A stretch of 64,000 bases of DNA, taken from positions 2,615-66,614 of the forward strand of contig JAFGBW010000103.1 in the NCBI GenBank assembly GCA_016932965.1, given 5' to 3'. The notes below the pieces were generated by a model, which saw nothing but the letters and a program-made list of their open reading frames with translations, made no database searches and was not told where the DNA came from. Shown here piece by piece: positions 36,923-64,000 of this stretch (position 1 is the stretch's first letter; the number at the start of each line of letters is the position of its first letter). The position numbers and the translations under genes were made by a program. This stretch comes from Candidatus Auribacterota bacterium (lineage in GTDB: Bacteria; Auribacterota; JAFGBW01).

Positions 36923-39511
36923 ATGAAACAAATGGTGTTATTCATTCTGCTTTTGTCTTTTCCTTGTTTAGCACAAGAAGAATTCAGGTTGAATCCCCAT
37001 TTGTCTGTTTATGAACTTAAAAACGGCCTGAAAGTCATCCTATCGCCGCGGAATCAGGGTGAATTGATTGCAGTAAGGCTTTTTGTCAAGGCAGGTTCCA
37101 TGACGGAGAATCCCTATTTAGGAAGCGGAATCTCGCATTTTGTGGAACACCTGTGTTTTAAAGGGAGCGAAAGGGGACGGACCACTTCGCTTACGCAGGA
37201 GGTCAGAAAAAAAGGCGGGACCGTCAATGCCCACACCTCTTTTTTGAATACGGTCTATGAAGTGACTTTTCCCTCAATTTATCTTGAAGACGCACTGAAG
37301 ATCGTTTCAGATCTCGTGCTCCACCTTCGTTTCAGCCAAGAGGACTTCGATAAGGAGAAATCGGTGATCGAAAGGGAGATGGACATGATCGAAGATGATC
37401 ATGACCGCTACTTGTCCGAAACATTCTGGCATCTGGCGTATTGCTATTCACCGGTCCGGTACCGGGTGATCGGTGAACGCTCCTTATTTAGAAAACTCAC
37501 TCCTGATCATGTCAGAGAATATTACGAAGCCCATTATGTGCCCGGTAATATGATTTTATCGGTTACTGGAAATTTTTTCCCAACTTCGGTGAAGCCTCTT
37601 ATCGAAAAATACTATCAATTCGAGTCCAGACAATTTTATCCCGCTGCAGGGGTCTGGAATGAGCCCCCTCCCTCTGCTGAAAAGTACCTGGAAGTCGAAC
37701 GCGAGCGTCTTCCTTTATACAAGGCCATCATTGGCTGGCAGACTACGGATATTCACAGCATTGACGTGGCAACATTGGATGTCCTTTCCATGATTCTGGG
37801 CGAAATGAAATCCTCGCTTCTTCCTTATTATCTGATTCCCACAGGAGAAATTTTAGGAATCTCCAGTTGGTCCTTTACGCCTGAATTTCCCGGTTTTCTA
37901 GGGATAGGTTTTTCCTGGCAGGACGGGTCTCCTGAGGATAAATCAGTCCTGGTTGAAAAAGTGATTGACAAGGTCAAAGCGGGAGATTTCAGCAATGCTT
38001 TGTTGAAAACCGCTCTCCAGCAGGTCCGGCTCGGCCTTTTTTTGAAAATGGAAAGCGTAGAGGGAGAGGCTGAAATATTAGGGAGTAATCTGCAGACCAC
38101 AGGCAATGTGCGTTACATTGAAACCTGGTTGAAAGATCTGGAACGTATCACGAAGGCCGATATTCAGGAAGCTGCGAAAAAATATCTTATTCCTGTCAGG
38201 AAAACCACCCTTGTTCTCACGCCGGCTTCCAAACGGCCTTCACCCCCTCCCAAGAAACTGGAAAAAATCATTCTTCGTCCGGTTTTATTGAAACTGCCTT
38301 CCGGTTTAAGAGTGATTTTATTGAATGACGACCGGCTTCCCTTGACTTACGTTCAATGGGTTGGTCTGGGCGGCACCATGGCGGAACCAGATCACAAAGA
38401 AGGAGTGGGAGCCTTGCTTGGTAATATACTCGGAACAGCCAGCCGTAAACTGGACCGCTTCAGCCTCGACAGGAAAATGGATTCTCTTGGCAGTGAAGTG
38501 AGAGGATTCTCAGGAAGAAACAGTTTTGGACTTTCCGGTACCGTTGTATCTGAAAACCTGCCTGCCATTCTGCCTGATTTTTTTAATCTTCTATTGACGC
38601 CGCGGTGGATAAAAAGTGACGTGGAAAGGGAAAAGAAGATTTTGAAAGTGGAAATGAATACCTCCATGGAGGACCCGTTTGACCGCGCCGCCATTGAAAT
38701 GCGCAAGGCGCTATACGGTAGTCACCCTTATGGGCGCATGATCAAGGGGACTGTAGAATCTATTTCACAAATGACGACGGAGGATATTGAATCTTTCTAC
38801 AGACAGATTTTTTGTCTTGAGAGAGGCGTGCTTTCTATCATGGGAAAATTCGATCTCCCCTGGGTCATGGACTGGCTCCATAAGATGGACAGAAAAAAAA
38901 CACCGCAAATACCCCCATGGAAAAGCACACTTTTGCCGGTTTTTCAGCCTTGTGAAAAACTGATCCCTCTTGAGAACGTGGAACAGACCATTCTCATGCT
39001 GGGTTATCCTACTGTTTCCATGCATCATGAGGACGCGCTGGCTCTGGATTTTCTTTCTGCGCATCTTTCGGAACAAAATTCTCCGCTTTTTAAAAGAATC
39101 AGGGAGGAAAAGGGGTGGGCTTATATTACCGGGGCTGAGAGTTCCTGTAACTTGGCAGGAGGCCATTTTATTGTTTATGCCGCCTTCAAGGAAGATGTGA
39201 TGGAAGAGATAGACGGGATCATCCAGGATATTTTTTTCAATCTGGCAAAAGAGGACATGCCCCTGGATATATTTGAAGAAACCAGATCATTTCTTCTTGG
39301 GCAGGATTTAAGAAGGATGGCTAATACCAGTGATCTTGGCCTGCGAAGCGCCCTTGAAGAGCTTTATGGCCTGGGTTATGATCATTATTCGAAAAGGGCG
39401 GAGAAGATTAAAACCTTGACTCCGATTCAGGTCCGTGAAACAGTCAAAAAATATTTCCATAACAAATCCCATGTCAAACTCGTTGTAGGAAAGCGCGCCG
39501 TGTGCAAATGA
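36923..39511 (+). CDS. secreted double-M16 zinc peptidase (pitrilysin/insulinase family)
   Basis: 862 aa; signal peptide; inverted zinc motif HFVEHLCF (HxxEH) in the first M16 half; second, degenerate M16 half in the C-terminal 430 aa. Confidence 0.75.
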   Translation: MKQMVLFILLLSFPCLAQEEFRLNPHLSVYELKNGLKVILSPRNQGELIAVRLFVKAGSMTENPYLGSGISHFVEHLCFKGSERGRTTSLTQEVRKKGGTVNAHTSFLNTVYEVTFPSIYLEDALKIVSDLVLHLRFSQEDFDKEKSVIEREMDMIEDDHDRYLSETFWHLAYCYSPVRYRVIGERSLFRKLTPDHVREYYEAHYVPGNMILSVTGNFFPTSVKPLIEKYYQFESRQFYPAAGVWNEPPPSAEKYLEVERERLPLYKAIIGWQTTDIHSIDVATLDVLSMILGEMKSSLLPYYLIPTGEILGISSWSFTPEFPGFLGIGFSWQDGSPEDKSVLVEKVIDKVKAGDFSNALLKTALQQVRLGLFLKMESVEGEAEILGSNLQTTGNVRYIETWLKDLERITKADIQEAAKKYLIPVRKTTLVLTPASKRPSPPPKKLEKIILRPVLLKLPSGLRVILLNDDRLPLTYVQWVGLGGTMAEPDHKEGVGALLGNILGTASRKLDRFSLDRKMDSLGSEVRGFSGRNSFGLSGTVVSENLPAILPDFFNLLLTPRWIKSDVEREKKILKVEMNTSMEDPFDRAAIEMRKALYGSHPYGRMIKGTVESISQMTTEDIESFYRQIFCLERGVLSIMGKFDLPWVMDWLHKMDRKKTPQIPPWKSTLLPVFQPCEKLIPLENVEQTILMLGYPTVSMHHEDALALDFLSAHLSEQNSPLFKRIREEKGWAYITGAESSCNLAGGHFIVYAAFKEDVMEEIDGIIQDIFFNLAKEDMPLDIFEETRSFLLGQDLRRMANTSDLGLRSALEELYGLGYDHYSKRAEKIKTLTPIQVRETVKKYFHNKSHVKLVVGKRAVCK

Positions 39512-41991
39512 ACATGAATGAAAACGATAGTGCTTTATCCATGGAAGACACGACCGTTCAGGAGGGAACAGAAGAAGTTTTTTTTTCAAAAAAGAATCAT
39601 CTCAGATTCAATGATTTGAAGCAGGATCTGGAAATGTATGATGTGCTTTCTGAAATCGGAGAGGGGGCCACGGGTATTGTATATGAAGCCGTTCATAAAA
39701 AATTAGGACGGCCCGTAGCCATCAAAATGCTGCGTCCCGAATACTTTAAAGATCATGATATCTTAAAAAATTTTCGCAGGGAGGCTCAAATCATCTCCCG
39801 CATCAAGCACGAGAATATCGCCTCTGTTTATGATTTCATCGAAGCCAATAAACACTATTACATCATCATGGAAAAAGTGTATGGAAAGAGCCTGTCTGAT
39901 ATCATCAAGACGAAACGGATGACGGAGGAGGAAATTCTCCATGTCATGCTGGGGCTTTTGGAAGGGGTGCGCTATTCCCATAATAAAAAGATCCTGCACC
40001 TGGATATCAAGCCATCCAATATCTTAATAAACGAGTATGGTGAACCTGTGATCGTTGACTTCGGAATTTCCCGGTTTCAATTCTCTAACACTGAAAAGAA
40101 CAGGATCGTGGGTACGCCGCACTACATGGCTCCTGAACAGTATTCCCGGTCCCAGTCCTGTCTGGATGTGCGTACTGACATTTATGCCCTCGGCATTTTA
40201 TTTTATCAGCTTGTAAGCGGTCAGCTGCCTTTTAACGGGAATTCTTTCTCCGAGATCAGGGAAAAAGTGATGAATCATGATCCCTTGAGGTTATCTTCCA
40301 TCTGCCCTGATATTTCCCCCGGCCTGGAAGCCATTATTTTAAAAATGATCCGTCAGTCTCCTTCTGAGAGATATCCCGATGCCCAATTGGTCATTGATGA
40401 CATCAAAAGATATTTGAATAATGAACCGGTCAAGGCTTATCAATATAAGCGGCTTTCTCTTGTGTGGAATTGGATGATCAGAAATATGGCTGTGACCGTA
40501 TTATCTCTTTTGACTCTGGCCGTGACGTTTGCCTTTATCGTATATTTTCACAATAAGGTCATCGAACAAACCCCCCAATGGAAACAGGCCTTTTCCGAAG
40601 ATTTTAACCAGGATTTTTTGGGTAAGTGGGAAGGGTATTCCGGATTCGTCAACGGGTGTCTTACTCCTGTCAAAGCTGAAGATTTTATGAAGATTTTCAG
40701 CCGGAAAATCAAGGTATGCGGTTTTAAAAAAGAATACGATTCTTTACTGCTTTCTAACCAGTCGTTTAATGAAAACGTTAAATTGCTTTTTGAATGCACG
40801 GTCAATCCCAATCCTTTGAAAGGTTCGCATTTCGGTTTTTTTGTCAATGGATCTCCTTCAGAGAATGAGTGGGGATATTTGATTGATTGCCAGGATAGTA
40901 AAATGTCCCTCATCCGGGACAATATTAACAGCACTCCGTTATGGACCGGTGACTATGTGTTTAAATCGGATCAGATTTATCAGATTGCTCTTGAAGTCAT
41001 CAATGGACATATTCATCTCTTCATCAATAACAAACTCATTTTTGATTTTCAGGATATCGTGACCTGGTTTTCGAAAAACGATAACCGGATTGGTTTTTAC
41101 GCAACCAATGTGGATATGGAGGTGGATAATGTGGTTCTTTTCCAGCAGAATACAGCCCTCCTGATCACTCCTTTGGATATCGGACACCGTTTTTTCCAGT
41201 TGGGACGATTCGACGAAGCCATTCATGAATACGCGAGTGTCATTGAAAAATATCCCGCACATAAAATGACTTTAGATGCTTATTATTTCAAGGGTCTGGC
41301 TCTCATTAAAAACAATCATCCTGTGAAAGCACTGCGTGATTTCGATCGGCTCATTTCGCTCACCAAGGAAGACAGCGTCAAAGGGAAATGTTACTATCAA
41401 AAGGGAGTTTGTCTTTTAGAATTGAACGAATTGCCTAATGCCTGCAAGTCCTTTGACTATGCTCTCAGCGTTTATGATATTGCCTCCCTGCGGTCCAATG
41501 TAATCAATGTTGTTGTTGATACGGCCTTGAAAAAAGTAGCTGAAGCGACGATGGGGAGTGTTTCTGACGCTGAATATCTGTTTCAATATCTGATTAAGCT
41601 GAATTCCCCCTGGAAACTGTCTTATGTGGAGGTCCCTAAAAAGATCATCTTATATTATTTTGACCGCGGATATTATGAGAAATGCCTGCAAAGCCTGGAT
41701 CTCCTCATAAGGCATTATACTCCCAAAAAAGATTTACTGGCTTTTGCCACGTGGAAAAAAGCAAGGGCCTATTCAGAGATGGCCAGACTGCAGAAAGAGG
41801 AAGCGGCTACTCGTTCTTATAATGAAAAGGCGATTGATTGCTATAATACTATTTTGACTCGATATCCTGAAATTGAGATATATTGTTCTTTTGCGCATGA
41901 AGAACTCGCTAAGATTTACCGTTCCATGGGAGAGTTTGTTTTGGCCAATACCCATGAGAAGCAGGTGAAAAGAGAATGGATGGAGAATTAA
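39502..41991 (+). CDS. Hanks-type Ser/Thr protein kinase with TM segment, LamG-like domain and TPR repeats
   Basis: 829 aa; kinase motifs AIKML, HLDIKPSNILI, DFGIS, GTPHYMAPE; one TM (MAVTVLSLLTLAVTFAFIVYF); LamG-like YQIALEVINGHIHLFINNKLIFDF; C-terminal TPR-like repeats. Confidence 0.8.
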   Translation: MQMNMNENDSALSMEDTTVQEGTEEVFFSKKNHLRFNDLKQDLEMYDVLSEIGEGATGIVYEAVHKKLGRPVAIKMLRPEYFKDHDILKNFRREAQIISRIKHENIASVYDFIEANKHYYIIMEKVYGKSLSDIIKTKRMTEEEILHVMLGLLEGVRYSHNKKILHLDIKPSNILINEYGEPVIVDFGISRFQFSNTEKNRIVGTPHYMAPEQYSRSQSCLDVRTDIYALGILFYQLVSGQLPFNGNSFSEIREKVMNHDPLRLSSICPDISPGLEAIILKMIRQSPSERYPDAQLVIDDIKRYLNNEPVKAYQYKRLSLVWNWMIRNMAVTVLSLLTLAVTFAFIVYFHNKVIEQTPQWKQAFSEDFNQDFLGKWEGYSGFVNGCLTPVKAEDFMKIFSRKIKVCGFKKEYDSLLLSNQSFNENVKLLFECTVNPNPLKGSHFGFFVNGSPSENEWGYLIDCQDSKMSLIRDNINSTPLWTGDYVFKSDQIYQIALEVINGHIHLFINNKLIFDFQDIVTWFSKNDNRIGFYATNVDMEVDNVVLFQQNTALLITPLDIGHRFFQLGRFDEAIHEYASVIEKYPAHKMTLDAYYFKGLALIKNNHPVKALRDFDRLISLTKEDSVKGKCYYQKGVCLLELNELPNACKSFDYALSVYDIASLRSNVINVVVDTALKKVAEATMGSVSDAEYLFQYLIKLNSPWKLSYVEVPKKIILYYFDRGYYEKCLQSLDLLIRHYTPKKDLLAFATWKKARAYSEMARLQKEEAATRSYNEKAIDCYNTILTRYPEIEIYCSFAHEELAKIYRSMGEFVLANTHEKQVKREWMEN

Positions 41992-51855: not shown

Positions 51856-52707
51856 ATGGATATTAAATTTTTCGGCCAGTATTTATTGGAAAAAAACATC
51901 ATTACTAAAGTCCAGCTTCTGGAGGCAATCACACTCCAGACCAATACCAATATTTCTTTGCCCATTCTCGCTGTCAAATTGGGTTATATCGACAAGTCCG
52001 CTCATGATAAGATCCAGCAATATCAGATCAGAAATAATCTGAGCTTCATCGAGGCAGCCAAACAACTGCAACTTATCTCTTCTGAAAAACTCGAACATCT
52101 CATTGCGAGACAAGTTTCCAATAATATCCTTCTGGGAGAAGCCCTTGTCAGAAAAAATATTCTTTCCCAGGAACAGGTTGACGAGCATTTCCGCCGTTTC
52201 AGGACAGAACAGTCTGCACTGGAACTGGAAATATTGAGTTCCATCTCATCCCACCACTATGGAGATATCATCGGTGCGTCGCTGCAGTCTTCCGTGAATC
52301 TGTTCCGTTACGCCATGGATGTTCAGCCCAGGATCGGGGCTTTTTATACCCATACTAGCAGCAGCTCTGATCAATACCCCTGGGTTGCTTTTCAGTCTCT
52401 GCAGGGAGATTATAATTTCACCTTTCATCTTTATGTGACTGAACCGCTTATATGTCAGATAGCTTCCTCACTGGTTCAAAGAAGGGTGGATGATATCAAT
52501 GAATTGTCTCTGGATGCCATGAAGGAATTTGTCAATACCATTGTCGGATATATCTGCACCACGCTTTCCATTAAAAATATAAAGGAAGAACCGACGCTGC
52601 CTGAAATCGAACGAACGGAAAAAATGATCAAAACGAATGAAATGGTAAAATTGGTGCTGCGTTTTCCTGAAGAAGTCGTTGAAATAGGGATCATCTTTCA
52701 CGAGTAA
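51856..52707 (+). CDS. tandem T2SSE_N/MshEN-like domains + CheX/CheC-like C-terminal domain protein
   Basis: 283 aa; two copies of a GspE-N-like motif (FGQYLLEKNIITKVQLLEAI; LGEALVRKNILSQEQVDEHF); C-terminus SLDAMKEFVNTIVGYICTTLS resembles CheX. Confidence 0.4.
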   Translation: MDIKFFGQYLLEKNIITKVQLLEAITLQTNTNISLPILAVKLGYIDKSAHDKIQQYQIRNNLSFIEAAKQLQLISSEKLEHLIARQVSNNILLGEALVRKNILSQEQVDEHFRRFRTEQSALELEILSSISSHHYGDIIGASLQSSVNLFRYAMDVQPRIGAFYTHTSSSSDQYPWVAFQSLQGDYNFTFHLYVTEPLICQIASSLVQRRVDDINELSLDAMKEFVNTIVGYICTTLSIKNIKEEPTLPEIERTEKMIKTNEMVKLVLRFPEEVVEIGIIFHE

Positions 52708-52952: not shown

Positions 52953-53924
52953 TTGATATTTGAAGATTATTATAGCAATCTCCTTCATCATTGCGCTCTT
53001 TGTCCCAGGCAGTGCCACGCTGATCGGTTTTCTTCAAAATTGGGTTATTGCAACACGGGGGCGGTCTTTCCTGTTTCCTCGATCTGCCTTCATCATGGTG
53101 AAGAACCGGTCATTTCCGGAAAAAGAGGCATCTGTAATATTTTTTTCAGTCATTGCAATCTCCAGTGCCGTTATTGCCAGAATTATCAGATCAGCAGCAA
53201 TGTCATTGGGGTTGGCCCAATAGTGTTGGAATTGGAGGAAATCATTACGCAACTGGAGGTGCATTTAAAAAATAAGATTACCCGAATCGGGTTTGTTTCG
53301 CCGTCCCATGTTCTGCCTCAGGTGGAAATCATCATGAAGAGGCTGCGTGAAAGGAATTGGAATCCCGTTTTTGTCTATAATACGAACGGCTATGACAGGA
53401 GTGAACAGATACGGTCCCTGGAAGGGCGGATCCAGGTTTATCTGCCTGACCTCAAATATACGGATGGATCTGTCTCCAAAGCCTATTCGGATGCAGCCGA
53501 TTATCCTTTTTATGCGAAAGAGGCCATTAAAGAGATGTTTCGTCAAAAAGGGAGTGAAATCATTCTGGATGAACAAGGAGAAATTTTATCAGGCTTGATC
53601 ATTCGCCATCTGGTTATTCCCGGGCAGGTTGAAAACAGTATAGCCTGCCTTCGTTTCATTGCAGAGGAACTTTCCCCTGATGTGTCAGTTTCCCTCATGT
53701 CCCAGTATCATCCGGTGCCGGCCACGATCAAACACAGATGTCTTGGAAGGACTCTCAACAAAGAAGAATATGCCCAAGTCAGGCATGAGCTTGAAAAACT
53801 GGGAATGCAAAACGGCTGGATCCAGGAATTGGAAAGTTCCGCCTATTATTTTCCTGATTTCAACCGGCCCCATCCGTTTGAAGAAAAAAATCACCACGGA
53901 GGACGCGGAGAGCACGGAGAATAA
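52953..53924 (+). CDS. radical SAM protein, PflX/YjjW-like (pyruvate formate-lyase activating enzyme-related)
   Basis: 323 aa; CALCPRQCHADR...GYC...HHGEEPVISG...FFSHCNLQCRYCQN matches the PflX-family N-terminus and CX3CX2C; TTG start; the last 12 codons and stop are contributed by repeat fragment F. Confidence 0.65.
   Translation: MIFEDYYSNLLHHCALCPRQCHADRFSSKLGYCNTGAVFPVSSICLHHGEEPVISGKRGICNIFFSHCNLQCRYCQNYQISSNVIGVGPIVLELEEIITQLEVHLKNKITRIGFVSPSHVLPQVEIIMKRLRERNWNPVFVYNTNGYDRSEQIRSLEGRIQVYLPDLKYTDGSVSKAYSDAADYPFYAKEAIKEMFRQKGSEIILDEQGEILSGLIIRHLVIPGQVENSIACLRFIAEELSPDVSVSLMSQYHPVPATIKHRCLGRTLNKEEYAQVRHELEKLGMQNGWIQELESSAYYFPDFNRPHPFEEKNHHGGRGEHGE
53892..53920 (+). repeat. repeat IR-arm fragment, copy F (embedded in the 3' end of the rSAM CDS)
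   Basis: CACCACGGAGGACGCGGAGAGCACGGAGA is 26/29 identical to the IR-L consensus; it encodes the HHGGRGEHGE-stop tail of the rSAM protein. Confidence 0.6.
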
Positions 53925-55646: not shown

Positions 55647-56912
55647 TTATGGCCTGAATTCATCCAGTTTTTTAAAATCGAGCGTCCTAAAATAATCCTG
55701 GACGTTTTCGGCCCGGCGTATGGGGATGACCTGGCCGTTTTTCCTGAGTAGTAATTCCGCGGAACGGAGTTTGCCGTTGTAATTGAATCCCATGGCATGA
55801 CCGTGCGCTCCTGTGTCATGGATCACGATGATATCGCCTATTTTGATCTTTGGCAGTTTCCGGTCAATCGCAAATTTGTCGTTGTTTTCGCACAGTGAAC
55901 CTGTGACATCCACGGTTTCTTCAGGAGTATTTCGCTTTTTATTCAAAACCGTGATATGATGATAAGCTTTATACAAGGCCGGCCGCATGAGGTTCGCCAT
56001 GCAGGCATCCAGACCGATGTATTTTTTATAGATATCTTTGATATGCAGAACCCGGGACACAAGGTATCCATAAGGCCCTGTGATCATGCGTCCGCATTCC
56101 ATGAATATTTTTAGCGGTGCCAGGCCTGCTGTTGCGATTTTTTTCCTGTAAAGACGCTCGATTCCTTTGCCGATGCAAACGAGATCCACGGGTTTATCTT
56201 CAGGACGGTAAGGGATCCCGATTCCTCCGCTTAAATTGACGAATTCCAGTTTTATTCCGAGCGTATTTTGTAATTCGATGGCCAGATCAAAGAGCATATT
56301 CGCCGTATCAATGAAATATTGGGCGTGCAGTTCATTGGATGCAACAAAGGTATGCAACCCGAAACGCTTAGCCCCTTTCTGACGGACCATTTTGAAACCT
56401 TCAAAGAGCTGGGCCTTGGTGAAACCGTATTTGGATTCTTCGGGGTGTCCGATGATGAAATTGCCTTTCCGCAGCTTGCCGGGATTATAACGGAAGGAAA
56501 TCACTTTTGGAATGCCGGTGATTTTTTCCAGAAAGGGGATGTGGCTGATGTCATCCAGGTTGATGATGGCACCCAATTCCGCGGCTTTTTTATATTCCGC
56601 TGCCGGGGTGTCATTGGAGGTGAACATGATCTCTTCACCGGTGATGCCCGCTTTTTCCGACAGCATCAGTTCAGGCAGGGAACTGCAGTCCGTTCCGAAT
56701 CCTTCCTTGTGCAGAAGTTTCAGGATATATGGATTGGGAGTGGCCTTGACGGCAAAGTATTCCTTAAAACCCTTGTTCCAGGAAAAAGCCTTTTTAAAAT
56801 TCCGGACATTTTCAAGCATGGATTTTTCATCATAAATATGAAAAGGGGTCGGATATCGTTCAATGATTTTTAATAATTGTTCATAAGTAAATGGGATGGT
56901 TTTATTAACCAT
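55647..56912 (-). CDS. lysA: PLP-dependent decarboxylase, diaminopimelate decarboxylase family (fold-type III)
   Basis: 421 aa; YFAVKATPN (PLP Lys); C-terminal GLDACMANLMRPALYKAYHHI, VDVTGSLCENNDKF and HDTGAHGHAMGFNYN closely parallel LysA motifs; EPGR is ECGR here. Confidence 0.6.
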   Translation of the reverse strand: MVNKTIPFTYEQLLKIIERYPTPFHIYDEKSMLENVRNFKKAFSWNKGFKEYFAVKATPNPYILKLLHKEGFGTDCSSLPELMLSEKAGITGEEIMFTSNDTPAAEYKKAAELGAIINLDDISHIPFLEKITGIPKVISFRYNPGKLRKGNFIIGHPEESKYGFTKAQLFEGFKMVRQKGAKRFGLHTFVASNELHAQYFIDTANMLFDLAIELQNTLGIKLEFVNLSGGIGIPYRPEDKPVDLVCIGKGIERLYRKKIATAGLAPLKIFMECGRMITGPYGYLVSRVLHIKDIYKKYIGLDACMANLMRPALYKAYHHITVLNKKRNTPEETVDVTGSLCENNDKFAIDRKLPKIKIGDIIVIHDTGAHGHAMGFNYNGKLRSAELLLRKNGQVIPIRRAENVQDYFRTLDFKKLDEFRP

Positions 56913-57296: not shown

Positions 57297-57926
57297 TTAC
57301 CATTGACTGGGACGAATATTGATAAGAATAAAAAAGAATAAATAGGAAAGGAGTTCGTAGAGTTCAGTATAATAATAGGCAACATAGCTTTTTTCATACA
57401 GAATAAGAGAGAGACAGTTTCCGAGATTAATTCCAAAAAATATGCAGATTTTAACCATGTCAAGAGGGGGAATCCCTGCTATTCTCAACATGTTGCGATC
57501 ATACAGGTTAAATAATGCGTAGAGTATAAATACTGCTATCATTATTCTTTCAAGCTGTTTTTTTACTATGTTGTGAATATTTATTTCGTGATAGACATTA
57601 TATTTAATAAAGAATGCCGGACTTTGAATGTGAAATATGCTTTGTCCATAATTTATTTCTTCGAGGAAAATGAAGACAAATCCAATACCTGCACCGAGGA
57701 AGAAGAGACGATACTGTCTCCAGCCGATTTGTCGGCTTCTTATAAAACAGGAAAGGGCAGTCAGCAGCAATAATACTGCCTGCAGGTTTTCTACAAGATG
57801 ATGTTCTCGAAAGCAATCCGGATTGAAAAAATACAGGACGTGCAGAAGTAAAAAACCGGACCCCAGTATAACTCCCAGAGAAATGTTCTTTTTTTTTAAG
57901 GCGTTTTGCGCCATTTCAGTTTTCAT
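57297..57926 (-). CDS. hypothetical polytopic membrane protein
   Basis: 209 aa; 5-6 hydrophobic segments; no motif. Confidence 0.35.
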   Translation of the reverse strand: MKTEMAQNALKKKNISLGVILGSGFLLLHVLYFFNPDCFREHHLVENLQAVLLLLTALSCFIRSRQIGWRQYRLFFLGAGIGFVFIFLEEINYGQSIFHIQSPAFFIKYNVYHEINIHNIVKKQLERIMIAVFILYALFNLYDRNMLRIAGIPPLDMVKICIFFGINLGNCLSLILYEKSYVAYYYTELYELLSYLFFFILINIRPSQW

Positions 57927-58233: not shown

Positions 58234-59685
58234 TTATCGGCATGCTTCCGGCTTTTTAATATACAGGTCATAAAGATTTTTCAGTATCAGAAGAAAACCA
58301 TTCCAGTATTCCCTTGGACGAATATTTCTGATTGTAAAAAGATGCCGATAAATCATGATGGGTCTGAAATAAAATTGTAAAAAAGCTTTTTTTTGGGAAC
58401 GGATGAGTTTCTGCGGAGTCATTCCATCCGGAGTGAAGACCACTTTCTCCGCTGAAGGAGGATAGGATGAAAAACAGATCCAGGGTAGTCCATTTGTTTT
58501 TTTTCTGATTTTTTGATCTTCATACGCTGCCGTTCCAGGAAAGGGAACAAACAAATTGAATTTGGCATAATCCAATCCCATTTTTTTTGACGCCTCTATC
58601 GTTGCCATGATTTCTTCTTCTGTTTCTGTCGGGTTTCCGATGATAAAAAGACCATATAAAAAGATTCCGCATTTTTTTACCATGTCCGCGGCCTTGATTG
58701 AATCCTGAACGGTAAATCGTTTGTTTAAAATTTTTAATATCCTGTCTGAACCGGACTCAAAACCGATCTGGATTTTGGTGCATCCAGCTTTTTTCATGAG
58801 TTCAAGAAGCTCTTCATCCAAGAGATCAGGTCTGGTTTCTGTTGTCCAGACGATTTTAGACGGAACATCTAAGCGGATGAGTTCGTTACAGAATTCAATG
58901 GCCTGGTCCCTGTATACGGGGAAATTAGCATCTGAGAAGACAAAACCATCCACTCCGAACCGGTCGTGACACCATAACATTTCAGAAATAACGTTTTCAA
59001 CAGAACGTCTTCTCACCTGATTGCCCAATTCCTGATTGCAGAAAATACAATGGAAAGGGCAGCCCCGGTTGAACAAAAGAGGAAGATTCAGCCGGCCTCC
59101 TGGGGTCACTTCAGGCCGGGGTTTGTATTTTTCCAGGGGCAGAATATCCCATGCGGGAAAAGGAATGGAATCCAGATCCTGAATCAGGGGCCTTTCCGGA
59201 TTTCGAATGGGGTTGCCTTTATCCTGATAAGTAATCCCTTTCACATCATCAAGGCTTTGTTTGTTTTCAAAATGGCATACCAGATCCAGCAGGGTTTTCT
59301 CCCCTTCCCCGTGTACAATCACATCCGCAATGCCCTTAGAAATAAAATCCTTTGCAAAATAATCCGCGTGTCTATGCCCCAGGACGATTTTTATTTCAGG
59401 AAAATGTTTCCGGATTTCTTTTGTTAGAAAAACAGTCTGATCCGCCAAAGGTGTCAGACACGATATTCCGATCATTTCCGGAGAATAACTGCGGATGTTT
59501 TCCATGATTCCCTTTAAGCCGAGTTTTTCGACGTAATCATCAATGATTTTGACTTCATGTCCGTATTTTTTCAGGTAGGAAGCAAGATAAGCAAGGCCGA
59601 TGACAGGAACCGGGGCAAAAAATTTTTCATAATAGGTAAATTCGGATATGGAATAGTAAAAATGATTGATGAGGAGTATTTTCAT
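58234..59685 (-). CDS. class B radical SAM enzyme (N-terminal cobalamin-binding domain + rSAM core)
   Basis: 483 aa; B12-binding-like Rossmann (VIGLAYLASYLKKYGHEVKIID); CX3CX2C in NRGCPFHCIFCNQ. Confidence 0.75.
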   Translation of the reverse strand: MKILLINHFYYSISEFTYYEKFFAPVPVIGLAYLASYLKKYGHEVKIIDDYVEKLGLKGIMENIRSYSPEMIGISCLTPLADQTVFLTKEIRKHFPEIKIVLGHRHADYFAKDFISKGIADVIVHGEGEKTLLDLVCHFENKQSLDDVKGITYQDKGNPIRNPERPLIQDLDSIPFPAWDILPLEKYKPRPEVTPGGRLNLPLLFNRGCPFHCIFCNQELGNQVRRRSVENVISEMLWCHDRFGVDGFVFSDANFPVYRDQAIEFCNELIRLDVPSKIVWTTETRPDLLDEELLELMKKAGCTKIQIGFESGSDRILKILNKRFTVQDSIKAADMVKKCGIFLYGLFIIGNPTETEEEIMATIEASKKMGLDYAKFNLFVPFPGTAAYEDQKIRKKTNGLPWICFSSYPPSAEKVVFTPDGMTPQKLIRSQKKAFLQFYFRPIMIYRHLFTIRNIRPREYWNGFLLILKNLYDLYIKKPEACR

Positions 59686-59780
59686 GGTCTCAATATCATT
59701 GTTTTGATTTCATTTTTTTCTATTAAAGGATAAAATTACATCATGTTAATTCAATTTCAGGTTATTTTCAACAGCCAACC

Positions 59781-61217
59781 ATGAAAAAAATGTCAACTGT
59801 TCTCATGATGGCGCCCTGCAGACGCATGCGATACAACATAAGCGATTTGTATCCTCTGCCGCGTCTGGGAATCGGATCTATCTCGGCTTTTTTAAAAGAG
59901 GCGGGATACAATCAGACAAAGATCTGGGATATCATCGCGGAAAAAAAGTGGATACCGGAAATATTAGAAGCTTTTAAAAACGGGGTATGTCCGGATCTGT
60001 TGGGAATCAGTGCGACGCTTTTAAGCATGAAGGAGGCTTTTGAAATTGCTGAATCAGTCAAAAATCAATTTCCTCATATCCATATTGTGTTAGGCGGGCC
60101 CGGAGTCAGTTTTCCCGCTGAAGTTTTATTTGAATACGGCAAAGGTGTGGATTTTTATATCCGGGGGGAAGGCGAAGAATCGTTTGTGCAATTAATCCGA
60201 TGCCTGGATACCATGGCGTCGGATTTATCCTCAGTCCCCGGGCTTATCTGGAAAAATCAGCAGGGGAAAATCATAGAAAATCCATCAGGTAAATTCAGGG
60301 ATCTTGATGACGGAATCATGAGCGATTATTCATCCATGCCCATGCAGAAATATCAGCTTCATCCCCCTATGGGGATATATCCTCCTGCAGTCATATTGGA
60401 AACAGCCCGGGGGTGTTCTTATTCATGCACATTCTGCTGTATTCCCAGGAAGGTTCGTTTTAAGAATCCTGTACTGGTGGAAAAAGAAATCATCCGGCTG
60501 AAGAAACAATTTGGAATCAATGAAATACATTTTGTGGATCCCACGTTTACTCTTGATTCTGCAAGGACTGAAGAGATGACCGGAAGAATACAGAAGTTAG
60601 ACATCAAATGGTCATGCAAGACCCGGGTGGATTTGACGGATTTCTCTCTTTTAAAAAAAATGGCTGATTCAGGCTGTTATCTTATTTCCTTTGGCGTGGA
60701 ATCAGCCGCTGAATCCATTCTGAATGATCTGGATAAGAAAATCATGATCAGCCAGACAAATGAGACATTCATGAATTGCCGTTCATTGAGAATACGCACC
60801 GCGGCCTATCTGATGATTGGAAATCCGGGCGAGACGGATGATACGGTTAAATTGAATATTCAATTCGTCAGACAACTTCAGCCGGACTATGTCTTATATG
60901 GAATCCTTCAACCTGATCCGGCCAGTCAATTGACCCATGACATGATCAGAAAAGGATTTTTTTCAGAAAAGGATTTATACCGGTATTATTTATCGGACGA
61001 AGACAATTATTTCCAGGATCACACGGTTTGCGGGCTTCCGCTCAAGACGGTTCAGGATTGGATCAGGAAGGCAAGCAGGGGTTTTTATCTTCGTCCGGGA
61101 TATGTTGTTAGGAGGCTTACTGATTTGAGAAGTATTCAGGACCTTATAAATCTGGGAGCAGGCGGTCTGACATTCATGAAAGATTTTATGGGATTGGGAC
61201 GCCTTTGGAAACAATGA
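59781..61217 (+). CDS. class B radical SAM enzyme (cobalamin-binding domain + rSAM core)
   Basis: 478 aa; B12-like N-terminal domain (LLGISATLLSMKEAFEIAESVKNQFPHIHIVLGGPGVS); TARGCSYSCTFCCIP motif. Confidence 0.75.
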   Translation: MKKMSTVLMMAPCRRMRYNISDLYPLPRLGIGSISAFLKEAGYNQTKIWDIIAEKKWIPEILEAFKNGVCPDLLGISATLLSMKEAFEIAESVKNQFPHIHIVLGGPGVSFPAEVLFEYGKGVDFYIRGEGEESFVQLIRCLDTMASDLSSVPGLIWKNQQGKIIENPSGKFRDLDDGIMSDYSSMPMQKYQLHPPMGIYPPAVILETARGCSYSCTFCCIPRKVRFKNPVLVEKEIIRLKKQFGINEIHFVDPTFTLDSARTEEMTGRIQKLDIKWSCKTRVDLTDFSLLKKMADSGCYLISFGVESAAESILNDLDKKIMISQTNETFMNCRSLRIRTAAYLMIGNPGETDDTVKLNIQFVRQLQPDYVLYGILQPDPASQLTHDMIRKGFFSEKDLYRYYLSDEDNYFQDHTVCGLPLKTVQDWIRKASRGFYLRPGYVVRRLTDLRSIQDLINLGAGGLTFMKDFMGLGRLWKQ

Positions 61218-62506
61218 ATTCAAAACCGAAAATTCTTCTGCTTCATCCTCCTGCCTCAAAAAAGAGGCGATATCAGCTGGACGGGTACTGCAGCCAGCCG
61301 CAAAAAGGCCCTTTCCGATGGCATCCGCTTGACTTCTGCGCCTTTGCTTCTAAGTTATCCCGGGAAGCGGACCTGGAAATCCTGGATTTGGGTATTTCTT
61401 CCTGTCATGATTTTAATGCCAGGCCCTTGGCGTATGATTTTATCATAGGTCTTATCGGTGCCTATGGGTGGGATGACCAGCTGCTTTTCTGGAAAGAGAT
61501 CTTGAAAAAAGGGGTCCCTGTCTTTTTAAGCGGTGATATCGCCAGGTACGAACCGCAGTTTGTCTTTGAACATCTCCCTAATCTTGGCGGGATCATTCCT
61601 GAACTGTCTTTGCCTCCCGCTCTATCTGATTTATCTGACACTAACAGTTCATTCATCTGGCGTCCTGGTAGAAAGGAATATTCCTTGCCTTCACTCAAAG
61701 AACCTTTTTCAATCGGGATTCAGAATTTTAATTTGTGGAAGCATTCTTTGTATCATCTGCCTTTCAATACAGGTCATCCTTTTGCAAGCATCATCACCCA
61801 GGTTGGGTGTCCGTATCATTGTGATTATTGCATCCTGAGCACTTATCCGTCTGCCAAAAGGGATTTAAATGAAGTTGAAGAGGAGCTTGAATCACTCAAA
61901 AAACAGGGAGCAAAGCATGTCTATATCAGGGACGCGACATTGAACAGTTCACAAAAACACCTGGAAGCGGTTTGTGATCTGATGAAAAAAACAGGACTTC
62001 CATGGAATGCCTTTGTTCATACCCGCGGAATAGGGAAATTTTCAAAAATATTGAAAGAATCCGGCTGCATAGTTCTGCAGCTGGGAATCGATTCGCCTGA
62101 TCAGGAAACCCTGAGAAGAAAAAACAAAATACCAGCAAATGCAGAAGAAGAAATTCATTTACTTCAGAAGGAAAAGATTTCCACGGCAGGACACTTCATT
62201 TACAGATTGGAAGATAATCCTTTACCCCCTCAATCTATTGCAAGGTACGCGGACGAAATCGGGTTGAATTGGTTCACGCTTACTCCCTTCATGATCAGAC
62301 CCGGAATGACATCATGGGATCGAAAAGAACTATCAGTCATCAGTACGATGGATTCATCTATCGAAAGACTGATTCTGAAGACTAGTCTGTGGTTTTATAG
62401 TCGTCCTTCCCGTGTATTCAGACTCATCCGGATCTTTTTCAGACATCCGATATTTTCTTTTTTAAGTTTAATGAATTTATTGATGAAGGATAAATACTTG
62501 AAATAA
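61205..62506 (+). CDS. radical SAM enzyme (class B-like, degenerate N-terminal domain)
   Basis: 433 aa; overlaps the upstream gene by 13 nt (translational coupling); ITQVGCPYHCDYCILS CX3CX2C. Confidence 0.65.
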   Translation: METMNSKPKILLLHPPASKKRRYQLDGYCSQPQKGPFRWHPLDFCAFASKLSREADLEILDLGISSCHDFNARPLAYDFIIGLIGAYGWDDQLLFWKEILKKGVPVFLSGDIARYEPQFVFEHLPNLGGIIPELSLPPALSDLSDTNSSFIWRPGRKEYSLPSLKEPFSIGIQNFNLWKHSLYHLPFNTGHPFASIITQVGCPYHCDYCILSTYPSAKRDLNEVEEELESLKKQGAKHVYIRDATLNSSQKHLEAVCDLMKKTGLPWNAFVHTRGIGKFSKILKESGCIVLQLGIDSPDQETLRRKNKIPANAEEEIHLLQKEKISTAGHFIYRLEDNPLPPQSIARYADEIGLNWFTLTPFMIRPGMTSWDRKELSVISTMDSSIERLILKTSLWFYSRPSRVFRLIRIFFRHPIFSFLSLMNLLMKDKYLK

Positions 62507-62657
62507 TAAGTTATCTTTTCAGCATGAATAAATGGATGGGAGCTTAAAATGAGAGCCGTTTGTCGGAAATAAGTTTTATGCATCTGTTATATTCAATTCA
62601 AGTTGTATGACATGATTATTTGACGGAATCGAAATCATCAATTTCAGGCAGGGTTAA

Positions 62658-63398
62658 ATGAGTAAGCCAGAATATAATTTTTTTTGTTATGTCTTCAATC
62701 TGTTTCCATTACCCCTGATTGTAATTAATGTCATCATGGCTGCGTGGCTGGTTTTTAATTTCTATATTCTTTTCCGGTGGTCCCGATATCTTATCATGGA
62801 AAGAACCAGTCGAAAAACCGGAATGCATTTGCTGGGTTACGCCTGTCTTTTTGGAATTCTTTCAAAAGTATTTTCATGCCGCTATGGTATGCTGGGTTTT
62901 CATTTATATGAACTGATTTTTTATTACTTATCGCTTGGATTCCATGTGGCAGCTTTTTATTTCCTGATTAAGAGTTCATGGCATTCCTTAAAACCGTGGC
63001 TTTTAACATTAGGGAATTATTTTTTCGTATATCATTTCTTATTTTTTCCTATTGTGTTCTGGATGATGTTTACATGGATCATTCCTTCAGTTGATTTTCA
63101 CCGGTTAAACGACGGGGTCTATCGTGGTAAAAGCAACAGCATTGCAAATCATACTATTTCTGAAGTGACGGTCAAGGAAGGCACTCTTGTTTCGATAAGA
63201 TGGATACAAAAAGGTTGTTCTGAGTATGGCATGGAAGCCTATGAGCAATTGCCCGGGCGTATTCTCAGACTTCAGTCATTGGATGTTGATGGAATCAGCG
63301 GGGCTACGCGTACATCTAACCTGATAAAAAGTTCCGTTGGAGATGCCTTGCAGAATAGCACTCATCATCTCGATCAAAGTGAAAATAGAAAAGACTAG
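62658..63398 (+). CDS. membrane protein with C-terminal FMN-binding (FMN_bind) domain
   Basis: 246 aa; 4-5 TM; C-terminal DVDGISGATRTSNLIKSSVGDAL matches the FMN_bind S/T-G-A-T motif (flavin attachment Thr). Confidence 0.5.
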   Translation: MSKPEYNFFCYVFNLFPLPLIVINVIMAAWLVFNFYILFRWSRYLIMERTSRKTGMHLLGYACLFGILSKVFSCRYGMLGFHLYELIFYYLSLGFHVAAFYFLIKSSWHSLKPWLLTLGNYFFVYHFLFFPIVFWMMFTWIIPSVDFHRLNDGVYRGKSNSIANHTISEVTVKEGTLVSIRWIQKGCSEYGMEAYEQLPGRILRLQSLDVDGISGATRTSNLIKSSVGDALQNSTHHLDQSENRKD

Positions 63399-63435
63399 CG
63401 GAAGAATATTGGGAAGGTCAGGAAGAAGACTATAG

Positions 63436-64000
63436 ATGAAAAGAATATTCAATATATTTTTTATATACCCGGTTCTTTCAGTACTTGCCTGTTTTTTGAT
63501 TCTCCCGTTTTTCTTTTCAAGAAATGTAGCTTTTCTCTTTTTTATATGGGCAATTATTATATTTGTATTTCTTTTATTTTCATCGATTTCATCCTTACGA
63601 AGGATTCTGTTCGATTACGCGAAATTCAGAATCCTTTTAAAATTCAATATTTTTTTATCTATTTTATCTGTTCCCTTTTTTTTATATTCATTTTTATTTA
63701 TATCTAGATTTTTCTTTGTATGGCCCTGCACATTGGGTATCTATGTATCACTTTTTCTGTTTCTGCTTTGGATTCAATTGGGCTCAAAAAAGTTTAAATC
63801 ATATTTTTTTCTTTTTCTTACACTCATTCAACTTCTTTTTAATTTGGCAATGGGTGTCTATTTGCCAGAATATTTCTGGCCAGACTATAGATGCATCTAT
63901 CATCCCTCGTTTTTATCTACGAAGCCGGTTTTTTGTCAGAAGGGCCTGAAAAAAATATTTTACGTTTTGGATTTTTTATCTGCAGATAAACAATTTTATC
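63436..64000 (+). CDS. hypothetical polytopic membrane protein (3' partial; runs off the window end)
   Basis: Frame-1 ORF from ATG 63436 is open to the window end (more than 188 codons, no stop) and is absent from the ORF track because no stop is present; very hydrophobic F/L/I-rich product; the listed ORF 63716..63949 is in another frame. Confidence 0.35.
   Translation, partial: MKRIFNIFFIYPVLSVLACFLILPFFFSRNVAFLFFIWAIIIFVFLLFSSISSLRRILFDYAKFRILLKFNIFLSILSVPFFLYSFLFISRFFFVWPCTLGIYVSLFLFLLWIQLGSKKFKSYFFLFLTLIQLLFNLAMGVYLPEYFWPDYRCIYHPSFLSTKPVFCQKGLKKIFYVLDFLSADKQFY

Follow-up and report, generated by a model that had tools for sequence, protein, structure and literature searches.

Three adjacent radical SAM (rSAM) genes on the chromosome of an uncultured, anaerobic Candidatus Aureabacteria (Auribacterota) bacterium, which we call rSAM1, rSAM2 and rSAM3, constitute a genuine module, rare but encountered again in distant phyla. 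Within the window (the whole 64,000-nucleotide stretch of DNA that was analysed) the trio is flanked by genes for a multi-TM FMN_bind protein and two more membrane proteins. The clustering of the rSAM genes is not a chance arrangement, as unrelated lineages again show members of these subfamilies together. We propose tentatively, and with more doubt than confidence, that the locus represents, in bare form, a portable cassette of three class-B-type rSAMs for radical tailoring, whose target would be a lipid-like or envelope metabolite.

Three enzymes of class-B type

All open reading frames described in a first-pass annotation of this DNA are present where it had placed them, and its account of two rSAMs with a B12 domain and a third rSAM agrees with the Pfam matches. 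rSAM1 (58234-59685, minus strand, 483 aa) carries a B12-binding domain at residues 25-135 (66.9 bits) and a Radical_SAM core at 205-364 (93.3 bits); rSAM2 (59781-61217, plus strand, 478 aa), transcribed divergently from it, has the same domains at residues 24-138 (54.9 bits) and 207-358 (61.9 bits). Judged by sequence, both keep a recognisable, putative cobalamin-binding Rossmann domain. rSAM3 (61214-62506, plus strand) matches only Radical_SAM in Pfam (40.2 bits). Each enzyme has a single CxxxCxxC motif, which is CPFHCIFC at C209 in rSAM1, CSYSCTFC at C212 in rSAM2 and CPYHCDYC at C202 in rSAM3. The site for the [4Fe-4S]/SAM cluster is kept in all three, and the catalytic Cys motifs are intact throughout the trio together with dozens of family-invariant residues.

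The start of rSAM3 is likely ATG 61214 rather than TTG 61205, from which a protein of 433 aa is counted. An overlap of 13 nt with rSAM2 had been reported, but from this ATG it amounts to 4 nt (ATGA) against the rSAM2 stop codon, TGA 61215-61217. The earlier description of the third enzyme as an rSAM stands, although it is not a plain one, as the predicted fold shows a complete class-B layout. The best PDB fold match of the AF2 model (pLDDT 88.5) is AprD4 (6fd2), full-length, with a Foldseek E of 1.5e-16, TMq 0.70 and 16% identity, followed by TsrM, CysS, MgmA and TokK. The model thus predicts the class-B three-domain fold with a divergent Rossmann-like N-domain. In this N-domain B12-binding is not detectable by sequence, and there is an invariant motif, YQLDGYCSQ-QKG-FRWH. 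When the rSAM3 and rSAM2 families are compared by hhalign, only residues 146-407 align. The AF2 model of rSAM2 (pLDDT 87.2) likewise has a class-B fold.

In NCBIfam searches rSAM1, rSAM2 and rSAM3 all score far below the curated cutoff of every family; the best matches are BchE for rSAM1 (212.5 bits against a cutoff of 481) and HpnJ for rSAM2 (164 bits against 578). These scores place none of the three in a housekeeping or characterised family such as MiaB/RimO, HemN or BchE, an assignment that would have removed the novelty claimed for the cluster. The trio adds to a very large class of enzymes, most of which are uncharacterised. Its components differ greatly in abundance. The rSAM1 family (SF1) is a very large, generic BchE-like subfamily with more than 4145 homologues, the closest of them 58-59% identical; the rSAM2 family (SF4) is small, with ~45 clusters at >=41% identity; and the rSAM3 clade (SF2) is very rare, with 5 representatives above 480 bits among 1.84 billion. 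A close rSAM3 homologue occurs in only 3 of 185,579 species-representative genomes, a patchy spread that bears out the accessory character first suspected.

rSAM1 and rSAM2 share a divergent, AT-rich intergenic region of 95 bp (59686-59780), which contains inverted repeat I1. Both start codons lie within an identical ACCATGAAAA context. A single promoter-like match was found in this region, on the minus strand at 59771-59743; such matches are no more frequent than in shuffled sequence. Rfam searches of the whole window at gathering thresholds, and of 56.8-64 kb at E<=1, returned no riboswitch or other RNA family. Neither NRPS/PKS genes nor a plausible precursor ORF was found, the intergenic gaps included, so the reported absence of precursor, NRPS/PKS and cobalamin riboswitch is confirmed. 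The window contains no gene of a lipid, glycan or other pathway alongside the trio.

A conserved pair with variable company

The conserved unit of the locus is the translationally coupled rSAM2-rSAM3 pair, joined by the ATGA overlap. The adjacent pair was found in three further distant lineages (L004, L007/L088, L089/L096), each with an rSAM2 orthologue of 48-51% identity immediately upstream of the rSAM3 orthologue; between phyla the pair is conserved at 43-55% identity. At least 11 times a member of each family was found on one and the same contig, and members of both fall within one island of a 1.3 Mb contig. In distant lineages the pair is usually accompanied by rSAM1-like and other class-B paralogues, and the combination SF1+SF4+SF2 recurs among the related loci. 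Paralogues of SF1 lie beside rSAM3 orthologues in six lineages, L004, L008, L009, L089 and L091 among them, and islands with such paralogues hold up to ~8 class-B-type rSAMs. The two genes are not always paired: L090 has a solitary rSAM3 orthologue, and L095 an rSAM2 orthologue with no adjacent rSAM3. Binatia-type islands have no SF1 member. As rSAM1 comes from a huge generic family, its link to the module may be loose.

The accessory genes are heterogeneous from one related island to the next, and none of them is present in the window. One set comprises LuxC/E, homocitrate-synthase-like and aconitase-like genes; in L007/L088 and in L091 a co-oriented operon joins the rSAM set to genes for homocitrate-synthase-like, homoaconitase-like (large and small subunit), flavoprotein, LuxE-like and LuxC-like proteins. 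A second set contains GT2, GDSL and AlgX-like genes, including a GT2-rSAM fusion and GDSL/SGNH lipases, and a third contains UbiA and GDPD. Each of the three rSAM subfamilies has members fused to class I methyltransferases (P0024, P0078, P0221), and several islands encode such methyltransferases beside the rSAM2-rSAM3 pair, which fits a multi-step tailoring pathway.

The neighbours of the trio in the window are of a different kind. At 62658-63398 (plus strand), 151 bp beyond rSAM3, a protein of 246 aa has hydrophobic segments followed by a C-terminal FMN_bind domain (27.6 bits, Pfam cutoff 22) with a flavinylation-type DGISGATRT motif. It is followed by a very hydrophobic, Phe/Leu-rich polytopic protein without a Pfam or NCBIfam match (63436-64000, plus strand, open to the window end). 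On the other side, 307 bp downstream of rSAM1, a hydrophobic membrane protein of 209 aa (57297-57926, minus strand) matches no family. Homologues of these three proteins are absent from all 96 related loci fetched, and for this reason they are probably bystanders rather than components of the module. The first-pass annotation had placed the FMN_bind and polytopic proteins in the pathway and had taken the membrane context to favour a lipid or envelope substrate. Neither point is supported by the comparison, in which the flanking genes are missing even from the nearest islands.

Possible substrates of the cassette

What would such a cassette do? In the model that we tentatively prefer, rSAM1, rSAM2 and rSAM3 would act in succession on one metabolite. 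At unactivated carbons, rSAM1 and rSAM2 would probably catalyse either C-methylation by a radical route or a rearrangement of the BchE/HpnJ type, and rSAM3, perhaps in complex with rSAM2, would probably perform radical chemistry other than methylation, for instance dehydration, desaturation or the joining of two carbons. According to a review, however, neither sequence nor structure can separate methylating from non-methylating class-B enzymes (PMC12931638). Cytoplasmic ferredoxin or flavodoxin would supply the electrons, and cobalamin would be taken up; Auribacterota are anaerobes, described as non-phototrophic fermenters, and encode cobalamin ABC transporters (PMC9324843). By analogy with GrsA/B, Gmm and Ted, which act on archaeal lipid tails, and with HpnJ, HpnP and HpnR of hopanoid metabolism, the substrate would most likely be a hydrophobic, lipid-like or cell-envelope metabolite. 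The LuxE/LuxC-like, GDSL/SGNH, AlgX-like, GT2-rSAM, UbiA and GDPD genes of related islands suggest a lipid or envelope flavour, and lipid tails are known to be modified by sets of class-B rSAM paralogues elsewhere (PMC11214058; bioRxiv 10.1101/2025.10.20.683597). This leading guess derives only from those heterogeneous accessory genes and from precedent, not from the neighbours of the trio in the window.

The same islands lend themselves to other readings. GT2, AlgX-like and epimerase genes speak for a glycan, and the cassette might tailor a glycan or sugar-derived metabolite, with rSAM3 catalysing an AprD4-like dehydration or deoxygenation of a sugar diol and rSAM1 and rSAM2 serving as GenK- or Fom3-type C-methylases; the target would be an envelope polysaccharide, a glycolipid head group or an aminoglycoside-like compound. 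We regard this as unlikely. AprD4 is both the closest, full-length structural neighbour of rSAM3 and the top PDB sequence match for each of the three enzymes, an NAD-dependent epimerase/dehydratase gene overlaps the closest rSAM1 orthologue, L091 holds RmlD-like and SDR genes, and the GT2-rSAM fusion, AlgX-like and SGNH/GDSL genes fit as well. However, identity to AprD4 is so low, and the AprD4 scores in NCBIfam (98.9, 62.2 and 19.8) fall so short of the cutoff of 500, that they argue against it; the glycan genes are confined to some islands, and neither a sugar-pathway gene nor an AprD3-like reductase adjoins the trio in the window. Homocitrate-synthase-like and homoaconitase-like genes point to a small 2-oxoacid-derived metabolite. 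It is quite unlikely, in our judgement, that the cassette serves to make or tailor a small soluble natural product or cofactor of amino-acid or 2-oxoacid origin. In such a pathway a chain-elongated 2-oxoacid would be methylated or rearranged by radical chemistry, and its carboxylate would then be activated and reduced. The operon running from homocitrate-synthase-like to LuxC-like genes does occur in two independent lineages (L007/L088 and L091), and UbiE/class I methyltransferases are common neighbours and fusion partners; but the window has none of these operon genes, the substrates would be needed from elsewhere in the genome, and the chemistry of the Binatia-type islands, devoid of SF1, may differ from that of the window trio.

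Two further explanations are less likely still. The rSAM genes could be functionally unrelated neighbours, or partly decaying paralogues, that form no pathway with the FMN_bind and membrane genes. The several thousand members of the rSAM1 family, the bare state of the window trio and the non-obligatory rSAM2-rSAM3 pairing are in keeping with this, but the ATGA overlap, the identity of the pair across phyla, the intact catalytic and invariant residues and the recurring SF1+SF4+SF2 combination make it very unlikely. The most improbable reading is RiPP maturation, in which proteusin- or bottromycin-like class-B C-methyltransferases and an auxiliary rSAM would modify a ribosomal precursor peptide. 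Several class-B rSAMs with a class I methyltransferase, as in polytheonamide and bottromycin clusters, and matches to the RiPP methylases ApyD and TIGR03975 speak for it; these matches are sub-threshold (143.8 against 750 and 101 against 282), no RRE/PqqD domain, protease or exporter occurs in the window or in most islands, the intergenic gaps hold no candidate precursor, and the small ORFs beside the solitary rSAM3 orthologue of L090 are secreted coiled-coil proteins without homologues elsewhere. The original caution that function cannot be deduced with confidence from sequence still holds after family, fold and neighbourhood comparisons.

Comparison with known systems

In the thienamycin (ThnK/L/P), bottromycin (BotRMT1-3) and polytheonamide (PoyB/C) clusters, two to three class-B rSAMs are encoded together and act sequentially on one scaffold. 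Clusters of this type often include class I methyltransferases, which in bottromycin and polytheonamide are N-/O-methyltransferases. PoyB/C and BotRMT1-3 are among the enzymes listed in PMC12931638. Unlike these clusters, the trio comes without genes for building a scaffold (such as carbapenam synthase, precursor peptide or YcaO), and TokK and CysS are remote fold matches only. Like the cobalamin-dependent methylases of known structure, rSAM1 and rSAM2 exceed the Pfam B12-binding threshold. The rSAM2 model is closest to TsrM (6WTE, E 5.9e-22) and MgmA/QCMT (9CCB, E 1.8e-21), then AprD4, followed by OxsB (5UL2), TokK (7KDX) and CysS (9N1B); with 17-22% identity to the methylases and no substrate-binding features in common, their function is not transferable to the window enzymes.

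AprD4 (NF033070), the cobalamin-free radical SAM 1,2-diol dehydratase of apramycin biosynthesis, resembles rSAM3 in having a Rossmann-like N-domain unrecognised as B12-binding, an rSAM barrel and a C-terminal helical region. It differs in that the invariant N-domain hairpin motif is rSAM3's own, and the trio, with its low NF033070 scores, has neither an AprD3-like partner nor an aminoglycoside context. BchE and HpnJ (TIGR02026, TIGR03471), non-methylating enzymes within the largest B12-rSAM group, are the highest-scoring curated families for rSAM1 and rSAM2 and share with them a length of ~480 aa, the domain order and a C-terminal FY-RP region. In contrast, neither score reaches half of its equivalog cutoff, the trio has no genes for bacteriochlorophyll or hopanoids (hpn) in its vicinity, and the hosts are not phototrophs (PMC9324843). 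In archaea, the paralogous B12-rSAMs GrsA/GrsB (ring synthases), Gmm/GDGT methylases and Ted desaturase cyclise, methylate and desaturate inert hydrocarbon tails under anoxia (PMC11214058; bioRxiv 10.1101/2025.10.20.683597). Here the host is bacterial and neither window nor islands showed a homologue of Tes, Mss or Gms, but the systems are alike, by published description, in having several paralogous B12-rSAMs per genome or cluster, and some related islands carry genes of lipid type (LuxC/E, GDSL, UbiA and GDPD).

Gene structure, predicted folds and family assignment of the trio

All the open reading frames of the first-pass annotation were found in the window, and its reading of the cluster as two radical SAM proteins with a B12-binding domain accompanied by a third radical SAM protein is borne out by Pfam. 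The three adjacent genes, here rSAM1 (58234-59685, minus strand, 483 aa), rSAM2 (59781-61217, plus strand, 478 aa) and rSAM3 (61214-62506, plus strand), score 93.3, 61.9 and 40.2 bits against Radical_SAM (PF04055, cutoff 29.5 bits), which places all of them in the superfamily. rSAM1 and rSAM2 also pass the B12-binding cutoff (PF02310, 32.1 bits) with 66.9 and 54.9 bits; rSAM3 has the Radical_SAM match alone and none to PF02310 in Pfam. Each protein carries a single CxxxCxxC cluster motif, at residue 209, 212 and 202, respectively, and the motif is invariant across the family alignments. rSAM3 can be read as 433 aa from a TTG at 61205 or as 430 aa from an ATG at 61214. Independent gene callers choose the ATG, which overlaps the TGA of rSAM2 by 4 nt at the junction ...caATGAat..., instead of the 13 nt proposed earlier. 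The cluster had been described as free of a cobalamin riboswitch, and a search for cobalamin and SAM riboswitches agrees: whether the gathering thresholds or E ≤ 1 is applied, no RNA family appears over the cluster. Scans for terminators and promoters gave no information; sites resembling promoters are no more frequent than in shuffled sequence. The divergent start codons of rSAM1 and rSAM2 share the 10-nt context ACCATGAAAA (window 59679-59688 and 59778-59787), the two copies forming a perfect inverted repeat that spans the 95-bp intergenic region. The repeat may be coincidental, because both proteins start with MK.

The first-pass annotation treated rSAM3 as a plain radical SAM protein. Its predicted structure suggests otherwise. 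The AlphaFold (AF2) model of rSAM3 (pLDDT 88.5) matches AprD4 from end to end (E 1.5e-16, TMq 0.70), and the next matches are the cobalamin-bound TsrM, CysS, MgmA and TokK. The predicted architecture is thus the three-domain layout of class B, the cobalamin-dependent type. The N-domain is Rossmann-like in the model and holds a family-invariant stretch, Y23-Q-L-D-G-Y-C29-S-Q-x-Q-K-G-x-F-R-W-H40; when rSAM3 is aligned with the rSAM2 family by hhalign, only residues 146-407 are covered (99.2% probability) and the N-domain is left out. The resemblance to AprD4 is one of fold alone, and the cutoff of the AprD4 family (NF033070) is not reached. AprD4 and ArsL have a Rossmann-like domain yet bind no cobalamin (PMC12931638). 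For rSAM2 (model pLDDT 87.2) the best folds are TsrM and MgmA, followed by AprD4, OxsB, TokK and CysS. By sequence, the nearest solved structures of all three proteins are AprD4 (6FD2) and the MCR glutamine methylase (9CCB, MgmA/QCMT), both remote.

Is the trio a set of well-known enzymes in disguise? A housekeeping identity (MiaB/RimO, HemN or BchE) had been set as the test that would remove the novelty of the cluster, and it can be set aside because every score of the trio lies below the NCBIfam cutoffs; the distribution is, moreover, patchy rather than core. In the order rSAM1, rSAM2, rSAM3, the scores are 212.5, 135.1 and 23.5 bits for BchE (TIGR02026, equivalog cutoff 481.35), 159.3, 164.0 and 44.4 for HpnJ (TIGR03471, 577.6), 98.9, 62.2 and 19.8 for AprD4 (500), 121.3, 118.6 and 51.4 for the B12-rSAM of ladderane-type lipid biosynthesis (TIGR04072, 360), and 123.9, 135.2 and 54.8 for PhpK (TIGR04479, 600). 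The best NCBIfam score is thus BchE for rSAM1, HpnJ for rSAM2 and PhpK for rSAM3. Like PhpK, the Sden_1168 P-methyltransferase model (NF038361, 575 bits) is not reached. For MiaB/RimO (TIGR00089, cutoff 251) the scores are 50.1 and 20.2 bits, and NCBIfam lists no match of the trio to the HemN family. As to the archaeal lipid-modifying B12-rSAMs (GrsA/B, Gmm, GDGT methylases, Ted), the matches seen were weak ones to archaeal hypothetical-equivalog models (TIGR04013, 117 bits against 251; TIGR04190, 59.7 against 500). In the genomic context, the annotated window ORFs include neither an hpn nor a squalene-hopene cyclase gene, and no PEP mutase, the mark of a phosphonate context, occurs in the window annotation or in related islands. 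A defence-system reading was rejected: PADLOC gives just superfamily-level matches to one candidate model.

Recurrence and rarity

When window proteins were compared with related loci by tblastn and all ORFs of 13 loci were clustered, the pair formed by rSAM2 and rSAM3 stood out. In L004, L007/L088 and L089/L096 the gene immediately upstream of the rSAM3 orthologue is an rSAM2 orthologue (48-51% identity), and the two genes overlap or are at most 8 nt apart. On a 1.3 Mb contig the orthologues are ~17 kb apart within one island, and at least 11 rSAM3-family clusters come from contigs equal in length to that of an rSAM2-family cluster. Paralogues of the rSAM1-like subfamily (SF1) accompany rSAM3 orthologues in six lineages. 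The rSAM2-rSAM3 pair is translationally coupled, phylogenetically scattered and very rare, and the trio is a recurrent combination of three intact class-B-type genes, of which the window holds a copy without accessory genes.

Rarity is most marked for rSAM3. When its profile was run exhaustively with HMMER over 1.84 billion representatives clustered at 50% identity, only five scored above 480 bits; the next scores are at most 287 bits and fall in an unnamed subfamily of ~460 aa with 372 representatives at E ≤ 1e-30. The rSAM3 clade comprises about 24 clusters of 42-54% identity in a 90%-clustered collection, and a metagenome scan with rSAM3-specific motifs yielded only one further locus. A close homologue is found in 3 of 185,579 species-representative genomes, namely a Binatia MAG (49% identity), an Oligoflexia MAG (42%) and an unclassified bacterium (38%). 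For rSAM2, too, the family is limited in size, with about 45 clusters of at least 41% identity, and the family of rSAM1 is a generic one of more than 4145 matches, only 4 of them at 51% identity or above. This patchy distribution upholds the accessory character suggested earlier. Composition gives no signal of recent horizontal acquisition, because the GC content of the trio (0.40-0.44) lies inside the window range; the low value of 62-64 kb (0.356) coincides with Phe/Leu-rich membrane genes.

Elsewhere the module sits in large islands, many with several class-B-type paralogues, and up to about eight in a single island. Some of these paralogues are Pfam-negative yet keep CxxxCxxC. Two such proteins of ~412-435 aa (L093 8637-9875 and L002 4951-6258) have no Pfam match and are remote class-B paralogues, and therefore hidden extra radical SAM enzymes of the islands. 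Class I methyltransferases occur as island genes and also fused to members of all three subfamilies; C-terminal fusions are seen in P0024 (L008 1992-4055), P0078 and P0221, which are rSAM3-like, rSAM2-like and rSAM1-like, respectively. In two distant lineages (L088 6064-19828 and L091 139-12955) the radical SAM set lies inside an operon whose other genes include homocitrate-synthase-like and homoaconitase-like ones, and L088 adds an HTTM (vitamin-K carboxylase-like) gene and a Trp-halogenase-like gene. The island of ~25-30 kb in L002/L092 (ENA ERZ25039480 contig_20108, about 1,120-1,158 kb) has about eight class-B-type genes together with a 707-aa GT2-rSAM fusion, a class I methyltransferase, two GDSL lipases and an AlgX-like gene. 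UbiA, GDPD, a carbamoyltransferase, a U32 peptidase and a chorismate mutase are further island accessory genes. Among the unannotated accessory genes of L089 and L004, NCBIfam and Pfam recovered a TPR protein and UbiA, with a cyclase-like repeat below threshold, and nothing else. None of the island accessory genes occurs anywhere in the 64 kb window. A literature search on B12-rSAM clusters with LuxC/LuxE, or in Omnitrophota and other uncultivated lineages, turned up no account of the module.

Neighbouring genes and the rest of the window

The first-pass interpretation stands in part. Three radical SAM enzymes of an uncharacterised, accessory kind are supported; the inclusion of the FMN_bind and polytopic membrane proteins in the pathway is not. 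These neighbours, the FMN_bind protein (62658-63398, plus strand, 246 aa) and two strongly hydrophobic proteins without a family match (57297-57926, minus strand; 63436 to the window end, plus strand), are rejected as components because no homologue of any of them is present in any fetched related locus. The FMN_bind protein has a C-terminal FMN_bind domain (27.6 bits, cutoff 22) and multiple transmembrane segments, its topology being ambiguous by hydropathy and the positive-inside rule. It carries DGISGATRT, which we take to be of the motif type flavinylated by ApbE on extracytoplasmic domains. An ApbE-flavinylated protein of this kind is defined by an FMN_bind domain, a [S/T]GA[S/T] acceptor motif, an extracytoplasmic location and ApbE in the genome; no ApbE gene was present among the window ORFs scanned. 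An extracytoplasmic location, if it applies, would further weaken the case for direct cooperation of the protein with Fe-S enzymes of the cytoplasm.

Outside the cluster, the window looks like ordinary chromosome, with annotated ORFs that include Suf/NifU/NifS, UppP, polyprenyl synthetase, an LplA/B-type ligase, ZnuA, a Crp-type regulator, a CPA2 antiporter and lysA, the last (55647-56912, minus strand) barely passing the diaminopimelate decarboxylase equivalog cutoff (300.7 against 297.9 bits). A fourth radical SAM protein (52953-53924, plus strand, 323 aa, Radical_SAM and Fer4_12), 4.3 kb upstream of the trio, resembles the PflA/NrdG activases without passing any NCBIfam cutoff; the annotated ORFs of 22.7-64 kb include no glycyl-radical enzyme. 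In the 283-aa protein at 51856-52707 (plus strand), two N-terminal stretches with MshE-type c-di-GMP-binding motifs (53.9 bits, cutoff 38) are joined to a CheX-like phosphatase domain, and the protein may link c-di-GMP to chemotaxis. A 966-aa protein (33725-36625, minus strand) with CotH kinase, Laminin_G_3 and atrophied Ig domains adjoins a gene resembling an M16 peptidase pair (36923-39511) and a Ser/Thr kinase-TPR protein (39502-41991). Proteins identical to those of the trio have been annotated in a Candidatus Aureabacteria (Auribacterota) MAG, and published Auribacterota genomes point to anaerobic fermenters encoding cobalamin ABC transporters (PMC9324843).

Possible function and significance

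What might the trio do? Class-B radical SAM enzymes carry out O2-free methylation, ring formation and desaturation at unactivated carbons, reactions that are among the hardest in biology. We propose that rSAM1, rSAM2 and rSAM3 would handle a single substrate in consecutive steps. The cobalamin-domain enzymes rSAM1 and rSAM2, whose use of cobalamin is predicted, would perform methylation or rearrangement, and rSAM3, possibly in complex with rSAM2, would contribute a radical step other than methylation. Neither sequence nor structure tells whether a class-B enzyme methylates or not (PMC12931638). Our tentative preference, held at somewhat less than even chance, is for a lipid-like or envelope metabolite as the substrate. 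It is favoured because LuxC/E, GDSL, UbiA and GDPD genes occur in related islands, because the nearest curated families are BchE, HpnJ and the ladderane lipid family, and because archaea, in which multiple B12-rSAM paralogues act on lipid tails (PMC11214058; bioRxiv 10.1101/2025.10.20.683597), set a precedent.

Other substrates have to be weighed against this one. Tailoring of a glycan or sugar is unlikely; in its favour, a GT2-rSAM fusion, an AlgX-like gene and GDSL/SGNH lipases are found among the island accessory genes. A small molecule derived from a 2-oxoacid strikes us as rather doubtful. It would fit the operon of L088 and L091, in which homocitrate-synthase-like genes, homoaconitase-like genes for the large and small subunit, a flavoprotein gene and LuxE-like and LuxC-like genes occur together, all under equivalog cutoffs. 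That the three genes share no common pathway would be surprising. The full SF1+SF4+SF2 combination of the window (rSAM1-like subfamily, rSAM2 family and rSAM3 clade) is met again in L004, L089/L096 and L091; the pairing is not absolute, with an rSAM3 orthologue alone in L090 and an rSAM2 orthologue without an adjacent rSAM3 in L095. Maturation of a RiPP is the least probable reading. The intergenic gaps contain no precursor-like ORF and nothing conserved, in line with the earlier claim that no precursor peptide is visible, and the Pfam scan revealed no RRE. The RiPP methylase TIGR03975 (101 and 99 bits against 282) and ApyD (NF050148, 143.8 and 129.3 against 750) remain under cutoff, and the small ORFs flanking the solitary rSAM3 orthologue of L090 encode secreted coiled-coil proteins unique to that locus.

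A bolder version of the lipid reading, which we put forward as a long shot, is that rSAM2 and rSAM3 form a heteromer of a new type, a canonical cobalamin-rSAM enzyme with an AprD4-like subunit, and with the rSAM1-like enzyme make up a horizontally mobile cassette by which bacteria would remodel the tails of their membrane lipids anaerobically. The invariant hairpin of the rSAM3 N-domain (YQLDGYCSQ-QKG-FRWH, with conserved Cys and His) would replace or re-ligate the cobalamin site, and the tail chemistry would couple methylation with desaturation, cyclisation or cross-linking.

What are the implications of the locus? It defines a module of small size, sharp limits and scattered phylogenetic occurrence that consists of the rSAM2-rSAM3 pair and an rSAM1-like enzyme. 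The window version is its minimal three-gene form without accessory genes and therefore lends itself to heterologous expression and functional discovery. A modified lipid or envelope molecule, if that is what the trio makes, could account for orphan biomarkers of anoxic sediments or reveal a new radical reaction. At present the trio is one more uncharacterised B12-rSAM cluster, unsurprising to a specialist: it is rare and transferable, and of a kind already known and very large, the class-B enzymes comprising more than 100 sequence groups (83,589 accession IDs), most of them uncharacterised (PMC12931638). Should the heteromeric, lipid-directed version be true, bacteria would have in the trio their own equivalent of the Grs/Gmm/Ted toolkit of archaea, and some orphan lipid biomarkers of sediments might stem from it.
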